Below are positions 17,962-22,208 of a DNA stretch of 64,000 nt, piece by piece; within the stretch, counting starts at the first letter, position 1; each line of letters starts with the position of its first letter. The notes under the pieces were generated by a model. The model saw only the letters and a program-made list of their open reading frames with translations, made no database searches and was not told the origin of the DNA. The position numbers and the translations under genes are program-made. The stretch comes from Escherichia phage OES_C-1: sequence record PQ553088. The stretch is one strand, 5' to 3'.

Positions 17962-18240
17962 TCAAAATGTAATTTCTAACCAATCACCATCACGCTGATC
18001 ACTATTGACTTTAAAGCTGAATCCTTCTTTTCTCAGCCAATCACCAATTTCTTCAGTAATCAATTTATCACGAGCAATACAATAATAACTAAAATGTGTT
18101 TTACCTTGTTCAGCTGCTTTATTAGCAAGTTCCGAAAAATCTTTAATAAAACACTCTAGCTTAAACTGTTTACTTTTAAGTGCTTTTTCGCGCAATTGAT
18201 TAGCAAAAGATTCATTTTCATAAAGATCATACTGTTCCAT
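17962..18240 (-). CDS. hypothetical protein (T4 24.2 position)
   Basis: 92-aa ORF, tight packing after rnlB. Confidence 0.55.
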   Translation of the reverse strand: MEQYDLYENESFANQLREKALKSKQFKLECFIKDFSELANKAAEQGKTHFSYYCIARDKLITEEIGDWLRKEGFSFKVNSDQRDGDWLEITF

Positions 18241-18442
18241 TTTTCACCTTTTTATTGATATGTCTTTTTCTATAGACGACTTTTTCTCGAGTTTCAAATT
18301 TATTTTTAGCAGTCATAGCTCGAGCCCATAATACAGCCACTTCTTTTGCCTGTAAGTTTAATTCACGAGCAATTTCAATGAATGACTTTCCAGACTCATG
18401 AAGAGTAAACACCACAACCTCAGTTCTCATAATCAATCTCAT
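18227..18442 (-). CDS. hypothetical protein (T4 24.3 position)
   Basis: 71-aa ORF overlapping the previous by 14 nt. Confidence 0.55.
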   Translation of the reverse strand: MRLIMRTEVVVFTLHESGKSFIEIARELNLQAKEVAVLWARAMTAKNKFETREKVVYRKRHINKKVKNGTV

Positions 18443-18537: not shown

Positions 18538-19956
18538 TTATGGATAGGTATAGATGATACCAGTTTCTAAAGCAGTTTTATGAATGATGTATCCATTACG
18601 CGATTCTTGAACATCAACTTCTGGATAGTCTTTCATCATCTTCTGAAGAGTGTAACGATGTAGGTAATATTTACTATCTGGGTCGTCAGTTTTCCAATCT
18701 TTACCTTCTTCGGTCATTTTTTGGATTTCATCCATAACCCACCAACCGCACCAGATATAAGCTGAAGTACGATGTGGAAGAGGATGAACATAAGGTAGTT
18801 CACCTTCTGGTTCCGGAGCAACTTTATCAGTCACTTGAACTTGACCTGTGGCTTTAACTGTTTTACTATCATAGTCAGTTGCTGTAACGACAGCAGTAAC
18901 TTCAATAGTTTGACTTCCAATAGATGAGGTATCAACAGTATATACGTTAGTTGACCCTTCTACAGGAGAAGAATCTTTCTTCCATGAGTAAGTAATTTGT
19001 GCTGCTTCAGGTGCGCCAGTAACATTAGCAGTAAATGTAGCCGAAGCATCTTGCTGAACATTAATAGAAGGAGGAGTCAATGTAACCTGTGGATTCATTG
19101 TCTTCTTATTAACTGTCAATGATACTTCATTAGAAGTAACTGTTTTTGCGTCGTAATCCGTTGCTGTTACTTGGGCTATACATTTAATTTTTTTAACTCC
19201 AGCCACAGTTGGAGTATAGTTAAATGTAGAGTTAGTTTCTCCACCAACTTGTGAATCATCTACATACCACTGATACGTAGCAGACGCTCCATCAGGTTGA
19301 GAAGCTAATGCAGCAGTAAATTGAACCGGGGTTCCAATTACTCCAGCAGCAGGACTAGCAGGAGTTACTGCCAAGGTAGTTGTCTGCGTCTTTTTATTAA
19401 CAGTCAGTGACACTTCATTAGAAGTAACTTCCTTTGTATCATAATCTGCCGCGGTTACTTGAGCTACACACTTAATTGTTTTAACTCCGCTTGTAGTAGG
19501 AGTATAATTGAATGTAGCAGAAGTTGCTTCGCTCACAGGAGAACCGTCAACGTACCATTGATACGTAGCAGATGCGCCCGATGGCTGTGAAGCTAAGGCA
19601 GCAGTAAATTCAACAGCTGTTCCGATTACTCCTTCTGGAGGACTATTAGGAGTTACAGCTAAGGTAGTTGTCTGTGTCTTATTTTGAACTGTGATAGTTG
19701 TACTAATTTCAGCTGTTTCAGCATCAGTATCTGGAACTGGGTTTGTTGCAACTACTTTAATAGTTTTTTGACCGGCAGGTCCTTTTAGTACATAACTAAA
19801 AGTTGCAGATGTTTCTTCCTGTGGAACATCATCTACAGTCCAAGCATATGTAATAGGTCCATCTCCAGTTTCACCACTGGGTGTAGCAGTAAACTGCTGA
19901 GTCTGATCTATAACTCCAGTAGGTGTTTTAGGAGTTATATCAACTGTAAAAGCCAT
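18538..19956 (-). CDS. hoc: highly immunogenic outer capsid protein Hoc, with an extra Ig-like domain
   Basis: 472 aa; N-terminal Ig-like domains and C-terminal capsid-binding region as in T4 Hoc; contains a 96-aa tandem duplication. Confidence 0.9.
   Translation of the reverse strand: MAFTVDITPKTPTGVIDQTQQFTATPSGETGDGPITYAWTVDDVPQEETSATFSYVLKGPAGQKTIKVVATNPVPDTDAETAEISTTITVQNKTQTTTLAVTPNSPPEGVIGTAVEFTAALASQPSGASATYQWYVDGSPVSEATSATFNYTPTTSGVKTIKCVAQVTAADYDTKEVTSNEVSLTVNKKTQTTTLAVTPASPAAGVIGTPVQFTAALASQPDGASATYQWYVDDSQVGGETNSTFNYTPTVAGVKKIKCIAQVTATDYDAKTVTSNEVSLTVNKKTMNPQVTLTPPSINVQQDASATFTANVTGAPEAAQITYSWKKDSSPVEGSTNVYTVDTSSIGSQTIEVTAVVTATDYDSKTVKATGQVQVTDKVAPEPEGELPYVHPLPHRTSAYIWCGWWVMDEIQKMTEEGKDWKTDDPDSKYYLHRYTLQKMMKDYPEVDVQESRNGYIIHKTALETGIIYTYP
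19102..19677 (-). repeat. intragenic tandem duplication (2 x 288 bp) encoding two Ig-like domains of Hoc
   Basis: Protein residues 94-189 and 190-285 are near-identical (TQTTTLAVTP...SLTVNKK); the DNA copies are clearly related. Confidence 0.85.
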
Positions 19957-19965
19957 AAGTTATCC

Positions 19966-20646
19966 TTATTTTAATGTTACGAAAGAAGAATTACGTGTTT
20001 CACGAATTAGAACTGATCCGTCACGATTAATGTAGTAAATTAAGCTAAATAAAGTTTGATGTGCCGACGCGTGTTCAAAACTAGTTGGGTGAGATTTCCA
20101 ATCCGGAGTTTCAGCGATCCATTGATAAATCCACCAAGGAACCGTACAGAATCCTGGATTTTTTCCAATCAGCTGAAGATTCGGACTAAAGTTTTCCGGA
20201 AGAGTAAATACAGACGGCTTTTCAGATTCAATAATCTCAGCTACAGCCTGTTCGAATTTTTCTTCAACAAAAGGAGTATCTTCAATCAAAACATCGGTAT
20301 TTTCAGGAATTTTATCCGTTTCTACTACTTCAATTTTAATGTCAGATTTAACCGGAGAATCAATCAGAAGCGCTGCTTCTGGATTGACTTCTTCATCGTC
20401 ATATTTTAATCCCTCTGCGGCATCAGCAGCATTGATTAAGTCTTTAATAGATAACCCATCAGTCTCTGGCATAGGTTCACTAGCGAGCTTCTGGAGGGCT
20501 TCTTCAATATCATTAACGATATTATCAAAAGATTTATTCTTTTTGACCTTTATACCAAACTGTTCAGCATATTCAGCTAATTTAGCTTTAGCTTCTTTAT
20601 TATCATCAAGAGCCTTCAGCTCTGCAATATAATCTTTATCTATCAT
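19966..20646 (-). CDS. inh: Inh, inhibitor of prohead protease
   Basis: 226 aa, T4 length and position downstream of hoc. Confidence 0.8.
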   Translation of the reverse strand: MIDKDYIAELKALDDNKEAKAKLAEYAEQFGIKVKKNKSFDNIVNDIEEALQKLASEPMPETDGLSIKDLINAADAAEGLKYDDEEVNPEAALLIDSPVKSDIKIEVVETDKIPENTDVLIEDTPFVEEKFEQAVAEIIESEKPSVFTLPENFSPNLQLIGKNPGFCTVPWWIYQWIAETPDWKSHPTSFEHASAHQTLFSLIYYINRDGSVLIRETRNSSFVTLK

Positions 20647-20659
20647 AATATTTCCTCAG

Positions 20660-20667
20660 TATAAATA
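20660..20667 (+). promoter_or_regulatory. late promoter TATAAATA (uvsW)
   Basis: Exact TATAAATA 30 nt before uvsW ATG. Confidence 0.55.
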
Positions 20668-20696
20668 TAGATATATTTATTACATGGTATTTAGAC

Positions 20697-22208
20697 ATGA
20701 CTGACATTAAAGTACATTTTTATGATTTTAGTCACGTGAGAATTGATTGTGAAGAAAGTACATTTCATGAACTCCGTGATTTCTTTAGCTTCGAAGCTGA
20801 CGGGTATCGGTTTAATCCTCGCTTCAGATATGGCAACTGGGATGGACGAATCCGTCTTTTAGATTATAATCGCCTTCTTCCATTCGGCTTAGTTGGGCAA
20901 ATTAAAAAGTTCTGCGATAACTTTGGCTATAAAGCTTGGATTGACCCGCAAATTAACGAAAAAGAAGAATTATCAAGAAAAGATTTTGATGAATGGCTTT
21001 CTAAATTAGAAATCTATTCAGGAAATAAAAGAATTGAACCGCATTGGTATCAAAAAGATGCAGTGTTCGAAGGGTTAGTTAATCGTCGTAGAATTCTTAA
21101 TCTTCCAACATCCGCAGGTAAATCTTTAATTCAAGCTTTGCTTGCACGTTATTATTTGGAAAATTATGAAGGTAAAATTCTTATCATTGTTCCAACAACT
21201 GCTCTGACAACTCAGATGGCTGATGACTTTGTTGACTATCGTTTATTCAGTCATGCAATGATAAAGAAAATCGGTGGTGGAGCATCAAAAGATGATAAAT
21301 ATAAAAATGATGCACCGGTAATTGTTGGTACATGGCAAACTGTAGTAAAACAACCAAAAGAATGGTTCTCGCAGTTTGGAATGATGATGAATGATGAATG
21401 CCATCTTGCCACAGGAAAAAGTATTTCATCTATCATATCAGGTTTAAATAACTGCATGTTCAAATTCGGTTTGTCTGGTTCATTACGTGATGGCAAAGCC
21501 AATATCATGCAGTATGTTGGAATGTTTGGTGAAATATTTAAGCCAGTAACGACTTCTAAATTAATGGAAGATGGACAAGTAACTGAGTTAAAAATTAATA
21601 GTATTTTTCTTCGCTATCCCGATGAGTTCACTACTAAATTAAAGGGAAAAACTTACCAAGAAGAAATAAAAATTATTACTGGGCTCAGTAAAAGAAATAA
21701 ATGGATCGCTAAATTAGCTATTAAACTTGCGCAAAAAGATGAAAACGCTTTTGTCATGTTTAAGCATGTATCACACGGTAAAGCTATTTTCGATTTAATT
21801 AAAAATGAATACGATAAAGTTTATTACGTATCAGGGGAAGTTGATACTGAAACACGCAACGTAATGAAAACCTTAGCTGAAAATGGTAAAGGAATAATTA
21901 TAGTAGCTAGTTATGGTGTATTTTCTACTGGTATTTCAGTTAAAAATCTGCATCACGTTGTTTTAGCGCACGGTGTTAAATCAAAAATCATTGTATTACA
22001 AACAATCGGTCGTGTATTACGTAAGCATGGTTCTAAAACAATCGCAACGGTCTGGGACCTCATTGATGACGCGGGCGTAGTTTCTAAATCAAAAACATCT
22101 TCTAAAAAATACTCGCATTTGAACTATCTTTTAAAACACGGCATTGATCGTATTCAGCGCTACGCAGATGAAAAATTTAATTACGTAATGAAAACAGTTA
22201 ATTTATAA
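20697..22208 (+). CDS. uvsW: UvsW DNA/RNA helicase
   Basis: 503 aa; helicase motifs LPTSAGKS and DECH. Confidence 0.9.
   Translation: MTDIKVHFYDFSHVRIDCEESTFHELRDFFSFEADGYRFNPRFRYGNWDGRIRLLDYNRLLPFGLVGQIKKFCDNFGYKAWIDPQINEKEELSRKDFDEWLSKLEIYSGNKRIEPHWYQKDAVFEGLVNRRRILNLPTSAGKSLIQALLARYYLENYEGKILIIVPTTALTTQMADDFVDYRLFSHAMIKKIGGGASKDDKYKNDAPVIVGTWQTVVKQPKEWFSQFGMMMNDECHLATGKSISSIISGLNNCMFKFGLSGSLRDGKANIMQYVGMFGEIFKPVTTSKLMEDGQVTELKINSIFLRYPDEFTTKLKGKTYQEEIKIITGLSKRNKWIAKLAIKLAQKDENAFVMFKHVSHGKAIFDLIKNEYDKVYYVSGEVDTETRNVMKTLAENGKGIIIVASYGVFSTGISVKNLHHVVLAHGVKSKIIVLQTIGRVLRKHGSKTIATVWDLIDDAGVVSKSKTSSKKYSHLNYLLKHGIDRIQRYADEKFNYVMKTVNL

Follow-up and report, generated by a model that had tools for sequence, protein, structure and literature searches.

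Hoc is a monomeric fiber whose C-terminal domain sits on the center of each hexamer of the major capsid protein, with a series of Ig/PKD-like domains extending outward from there. In phage T4 the fiber measures 180 Å and comprises three Ig-like domains together with a capsid-binding domain (Fokine et al. 2023, PMC10385173). The same study described 650 Hoc homologs with strings of Ig-like domains, numbering from 1 to 10 (10 in Serratia phage Muldoon), and reported that these domains are highly variable even among close relatives of T4. A Hoc without domain 3 has also been described, and MUC2 binding was mapped to S183, L184 and T185 of domain 2 (Fu et al. 2024, PMC11853027). Variation in the number of Ig-like domains in Hoc is already published, and Hocs of 472 aa, the class treated here, are annotated as such in many genomes. 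An explicit account of four-Ig Hocs in Tequatrovirus, or of the A, B and C cassettes that we define below, was not found in the literature searched, and two further papers from that search (PMC13370021 and PMC10580926) do not treat the number of Ig domains. This missing account is a small descriptive gap, and the cassettes are not a new kind of thing.

We analyzed a 64,000-nucleotide stretch of Escherichia phage OES_C-1 (PQ553088), referred to here as the window. It carries a 472-aa open reading frame that a preliminary description, made from the sequence, had named hoc. The name is borne out by a match to T4 Hoc, by Pfam domains and by a structure model. The gene order 24.2-24.3-hoc-inh is that of T4, and the surrounding DNA is collinear with the T4 locus at 90-92% identity. 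T4 Hoc itself (376 aa; PDB 5vf3 and 8t1x; GenBank AAD42581) is encoded at the same position between 24.3 and inh. The T4 Hoc chain 5vf3_Z (376 aa) aligned to the window protein with E = 2.5e-214, and the match came in two pieces: residues 1-103 of the window protein correspond to T4 residues 1-103, and residues 189-472 to T4 residues 93-376. Thus, the window Hoc contains exactly one extra 96-aa unit, and the lengths of 472 and 376 aa that had been quoted for the two proteins are both correct. In a BLAST comparison of the DNA, two overlapping alignments both cover the one unit of T4. Pfam matches above the cut-offs (PKD, Ig_3, Ig_2 and I-set) describe a string of Ig-like domains.

The C-terminal domain was compared with that of T4 in the same way. 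Certain Y, H and W residues of T4 Hoc and its ESRNG loop contact gp23 (PMC10385173), and the alignment of window residues 379-472 with T4 residues 283-376 includes both these residues and the loop. When the capsid-binding domain was used as the sole query, it retrieved 136 representatives of the Hoc family of 70-1473 aa, the full-length proteins among them spanning about 180 to 1473 aa. In all, the window Hoc has five domains (four Ig-like and one capsid-binding) compared with four in T4. The coordinates of the locus are collected in Table 1.

Table 1. Features of the hoc locus in the window (positions in nucleotides of the window; aa, residues of the window Hoc).
Feature	Position	Strand	Evidence
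hoc CDS, 472 aa plus stop codon	18538..19956	-	ORF list; T4 Hoc match; identity to OES_C-2 and OES_C-3
Ig-like domain 1, aa 1-93, distal fiber tip	19678..19956	-	Alignment to T4 Hoc 1-93; all-beta model, pLDDT 84-93
Repeat unit 1, aa 94-189, domain-2 cassette of type A, extra relative to T4	19390..19677	-	Tandem repeat; Pfam PKD, Ig_2, BiPBP_C
Repeat unit 2, aa 190-285, domain-2 cassette of type B, equivalent to domain 2 of T4	19102..19389	-	Tandem repeat; alignment to T4 Hoc 93-189
Ig-like domain 3, aa 286-378	18823..19101	-	Pfam Ig_3 and I-set at 289-374; alignment to T4 Hoc 190-282; high pLDDT
C-terminal capsid-binding domain, aa 379-472	18541..18822	-	Near-identity to T4 Hoc 283-376
inh homolog (inhibitor of prohead protease), upstream neighbor	19966..20646	-	Length and position as T4 inh; T4 locus 90% nt identity
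24.2 and 24.3 homologs, downstream neighbors	17962..18442	-	ORFs; collinear with T4 24.2/24.3, 92% nt identity

The extra unit is visible in the DNA as a tandem repeat. A repeat search and TRF (score 703) both reported two head-to-tail copies of 288 nt, at 19100-19387 and 19388-19675, that are 77% identical. Placed in codon register, the copies give the two units of Table 1, which agree with the residue ranges in the preliminary description and with its reading of an in-frame tandem duplication. The domain that was copied is domain 2. Unit 1 and unit 2 are identical at 221 of 288 nucleotide positions (binomial P about 1e-71), whilst the highest in-register identity obtained from 200 shuffles of the gene was 37%. 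The encoded proteins are 79% identical. At 77% nucleotide and 79% amino acid identity the units had been overstated as near-identical.

Assembly errors classically occur at tandem repeats, and one possible reading is a copy number inflated by assembly or sequencing. The two copies differ at 67 of 288 positions, which allows reads to be placed uniquely, and the reading frame is intact with both copies under purifying selection (see below). The window hoc is 100% identical at the nucleotide level to the hoc genes of OES_C-2 and OES_C-3 in GenBank and is also present in ENA contigs, that is, in independent records, and a 1419-bp hoc occurs in dozens of independently sequenced phages. We consider the chance of such an artifact negligible, in line with the earlier view that the repeats have partly diverged and are genuine.

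To relate the repeat to domain structure, we examined an AlphaFold model of the window Hoc, for which 27 homologs served as input. In the model, four domains are all-beta, mostly with pLDDT above 90, and an alpha/beta C-terminal domain of low confidence (pLDDT 40-68) follows them. The beta-strand patterns of the two units are the same, offset by exactly 96 residues. The top Foldseek matches were four-Ig-domain fragments of Dscam1, Sidekick and ICAM-5, each with a probability of 1.00; the TM-scores are low (0.15-0.3) because the angles between domains differ in a beads-on-a-string model, so that only the fold of each domain and the count of four are informative. Together with the T4 alignment and the Pfam matches, this confirmed that the window Hoc has four Ig-like domains, one more than T4 Hoc, as had been proposed. 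The alignment also gave T4 Hoc three Ig-like domains and one 96-aa unit fewer.

Domains 1, 2 and 3 of T4 Hoc are orthologous to their window counterparts at about 85-92% nucleotide identity, the T4 domain 2 corresponding to window unit 2. The window protein differs from T4 Hoc in a type A cassette that follows domain 1 and precedes the T4-like domain 2, giving the arrangement A-B where T4 has B alone. The same arrangement is widespread. Across the full 1419 bp the window hoc is 92-97% identical to dozens more genes, including those of ECO07P4, NBG2, IME340, PP01 and several Yersinia phages. The 472-aa Hocs of OES_C-2, OES_C-3, ECO07P4, PP01, AR1, vB_EcoM_IME340 and vB_EcoM_NBG2 have the same length and the A-B order, with no substantive difference from the window protein. 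The 568-aa Hocs of UGKSEcP1 and UGKSEcP2 and the 664-aa Hoc of slur03 (YP_009625071) share domain 1, domain 3, the capsid-binding domain and the cassette with the window Hoc, but have more cassettes, three or four (A-B-C or A-B-mosaic-C) where the window Hoc has two. Far more divergent are the Hocs of Muldoon (1174 aa, 10 Ig), PhiPNJ-9 (without domain 3) and RB49 (PDB 3SHS), whose strings do not consist of this cassette.

A survey of Hoc lengths among the best 120 representatives of clusters at 90% identity gave 80 proteins of 376 aa, 29 of 472 aa, 7 of 568 aa and a few near-variants. The Hoc of slur03 (RefSeq) extends the range to 664 aa with four units that are 72-84% identical to one another. 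Thus, Hocs of 376, 472, 568 and 664 aa coexist in Tequatrovirus, a series of 376 + 96n with n = 0 to 3 (one to four units). Exact 96-aa length steps among close relatives, together with the conserved unit ends described below, characterize a tandem array that is polymorphic in copy number. The slur03 gene (L002:412-2406; NC_042129) encodes six Ig-like domains, the longest Tequatrovirus Hoc seen.

A blastn query of unit size yielded 890 matches in 616 GenBank phage records. The number of matches equaled the number of units in five check records (T4 1, vB_EcoM_112 1, OES_C-2 2, PP01 2 and slur03 4), and at least two unit matches were present in 20 of 60 evenly sampled GenBank records. Extrapolating from these match counts and the 60-record sample, about one third of sequenced relatives have at least four Ig-like domains. 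To count multi-unit genomes exactly, we also tried an 80-nt query across the unit junction. It matched 429 records at ≥80% coverage, a number contaminated by three-Ig phages because the search joins half-matches from both ends of one single unit, and it was set aside.

Two further observations concern the homologs retrieved. Representative P0099, a Hoc homolog of 567 aa that is 54% identical to the window Hoc, has about five Ig-like domains; multi-unit Hocs therefore extend beyond the closest relatives. Among Hoc clusters P0031, P0015, P0025 and P0004, several entries are labeled Escherichia coli or Shigella sonnei, probably because bacterial assemblies include phage contigs, and the name given to one 472-aa Hoc is ‘endonuclease’, probably a mis-annotation.

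To compare the units across phages, we cut the Hoc proteins into 96-aa units and clustered them into types. The unit ends are conserved: of 159 units, 130 begin with TQTTTL and 158 finish with LTVNKK. The types are A (window unit 1), B (window unit 2 and the T4 unit), C, and a mosaic type. Most of the divergence between them falls in a short stretch around positions 45-54 of the unit, where A has PVSEATSA, B has QVGGETNS and C has LVDGETTT. The architectures comprised 53 A, 22 A-B, 12 B, 8 C, 3 A-B-C, 3 A-C and 1 B-C, and a few with mosaic units, counted in the 120 highest-scoring cluster representatives, which form a biased and phylogenetically non-independent sample. The orders B-A, C-A and C-B did not occur among the architectures of these 120 representatives. 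In many units, segments bearing the A, B or C signature are combined into a mosaic, and exact runs of 13-18 nt are common to units. These shared runs and the conserved ends make unequal homologous recombination between units possible. We considered whether one unequal crossover, acting as a simple deletion that leaves a chimera with an A prefix and a B suffix, describes the single-unit genes. This is too simple, since the opposite combination, a B-like prefix with an A-like suffix, or a more complex mosaic is found in many single units.

The divergence between the copies indicates when the repeat arose. Between unit 1 and unit 2, dS is about 0.97 and dN/dS is 0.14 (Nei-Gojobori), and both units are kept under purifying selection. 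Orthologous segments of the window and T4 hoc genes give a dS of 0.25-0.33. The dS between units is about three times that between the window and T4 and therefore the duplication is older than the split of these lineages. Unit 2 is 89.6% identical to the T4 unit at the nucleotide level, compared with 78.8% for unit 1. In protein, unit 1 shares 96.9% identity with the lone unit of a 376-aa Hoc from another phage (representative P0104). For each window unit there is a three-Ig Hoc whose single unit is 90-97% identical to it, compared with 79% for its own neighbor. The same pattern holds in 30 Hocs of 472 aa, where identity between the units of one protein averages 78% with a maximum of 85%, while each unit has a counterpart among single-unit Hocs at 92-94% identity; no young duplication was seen among these 30 proteins.

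These values bear on whether the repeat is a recent duplication specific to the window phage that then diverged quickly. Such a history would fit units that are adjacent, in frame and of the same length, and it should leave copies that are each other's closest relatives and less diverged than orthologs. The copies are instead separated by a dS about three times the window-T4 divergence, unit 1 lies far closer to the P0104 unit than to its neighbor, and the A-B arrangement is present in many other phages. A recent origin is thus highly improbable. The preliminary description had treated the duplication as a feature of this phage, which does not hold against an inter-copy dS of 0.97 and the 472-aa form being a common allele class. 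Its wording of a gained domain stands insofar as the window Hoc has one domain more than T4 Hoc; the direction may be the reverse, with a loss in T4. Proteins with a closely related capsid-binding domain have 1, 2, 3 or 4 Ig domains, so that the comparison with outgroups points clearly to neither gain nor loss.

Taken together, the window gene is best described as a Tequatrovirus hoc that belongs to a common four-Ig allele class, in which the domain-2 cassette occurs in one to four old, ordered copies that are diverged paralogs; we give this reading a probability of about 0.85. Domain-2 cassettes with shared ends and shared internal stretches would permit unequal homologous recombination to add or remove whole domains in frame. 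Such exchange could take place within one genome or between co-infecting phages, and would account for the polymorphism in copy number as well as for the mosaic units. We infer this mechanism from the patterns in the units.

How the ordered arrays came about can be considered in two ways. A and B may be orthologous domain-2 alleles of separate lineages that were put in tandem by unequal or illegitimate recombination during co-infection, possibly several times, with no ancient array that was later trimmed. T-even phages recombine avidly when co-infecting, the strong mosaicism of the units shows that exchange is frequent, and most Hocs have a single unit, which can be of type A, B or C. Independent stacking should yield both orders, however, and we count 22 A-B against 0 B-A, 3 A-C against 0 C-A and 1 B-C against 0 C-B. 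The initial junction of a unit end with a unit start would also have lacked long homology to drive it. We regard this main alternative as unlikely. The types come and go freely but keep a fixed order. This pattern fits descent from an old ordered array in which unequal homologous recombination between units removes cassettes and at times restores them, and the three-Ig Hoc of T4 may be a reduced form. We tentatively extend the reading of an old ordered array to a history, somewhat short of an even chance in our estimation, in which an ancestral multi-unit array was repeatedly trimmed and reshuffled, T4 Hoc being one reduced product, and in which copy number and type are selected to tune fiber length and the avidity of glycan binding in different gut niches.

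From the likeness of its C-terminal domain to that of T4, the window Hoc is predicted to bind the centers of gp23 hexamers, one monomer each, as T4 Hoc does. Its fiber would be about one domain (roughly 45 Å) longer than the 180 Å of T4, and the extra cassette would supply one more potential glycan- or mucin-binding module. Mucin binding by the window Ig-like domains is putative, by analogy with T4, PhiPNJ-6 and PhiPNJ-9 (PMC11853027). Both units end with an S-L-T tripeptide, residues 183-185 in unit 1 (about 19402-19410) and 279-281 in unit 2 (about 19114-19122). The four-Ig Hoc therefore has twice the tripeptide that is reported to be critical for MUC2 binding in domain 2 of PhiPNJ-9 Hoc.

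The additional domain-2 copies, numbering one to three in about a third of sequenced relatives, are old, conserved and presumably functional. This matters wherever T4 Hoc is used as the reference, as in phage display, vaccine scaffolds and studies of mucus adherence (BAM). Hocs with 3, 4, 5 and 6 Ig-like domains thus form a natural, isogenic-like series suited to asking whether mucin binding depends on fiber length or domain valency. Little hinges on the window locus itself, as an identical gene is already in GenBank.

Domain 1 (19678-19956) has a dN/dS of 0.47 relative to T4, the highest among the segments, compared with 0.15-0.19 in the other hoc segments. The fiber tip changes faster at the protein level.

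Two minor points concern the neighboring genes. A 503-aa helicase-like ORF (20697-22208), which we take to be UvsW, lies 50 nt past inh, leaving a gap at 20647-20696. T4 has the homing endonuclease gene segE directly after inh, and slur03 annotates a DNA helicase at that position; with the helicase-like ORF in this place, segE is therefore absent from the window phage. On the other side of hoc, the longest ORF at the 24.3 homolog (18227-18442) has 71 aa, compared with 171 bp (56 aa) for T4 24.3, and the homolog in OES_C-2 is annotated at 186 bp (61 aa). The true start codon of the 24.3 homolog is probably internal to the 71-aa ORF.
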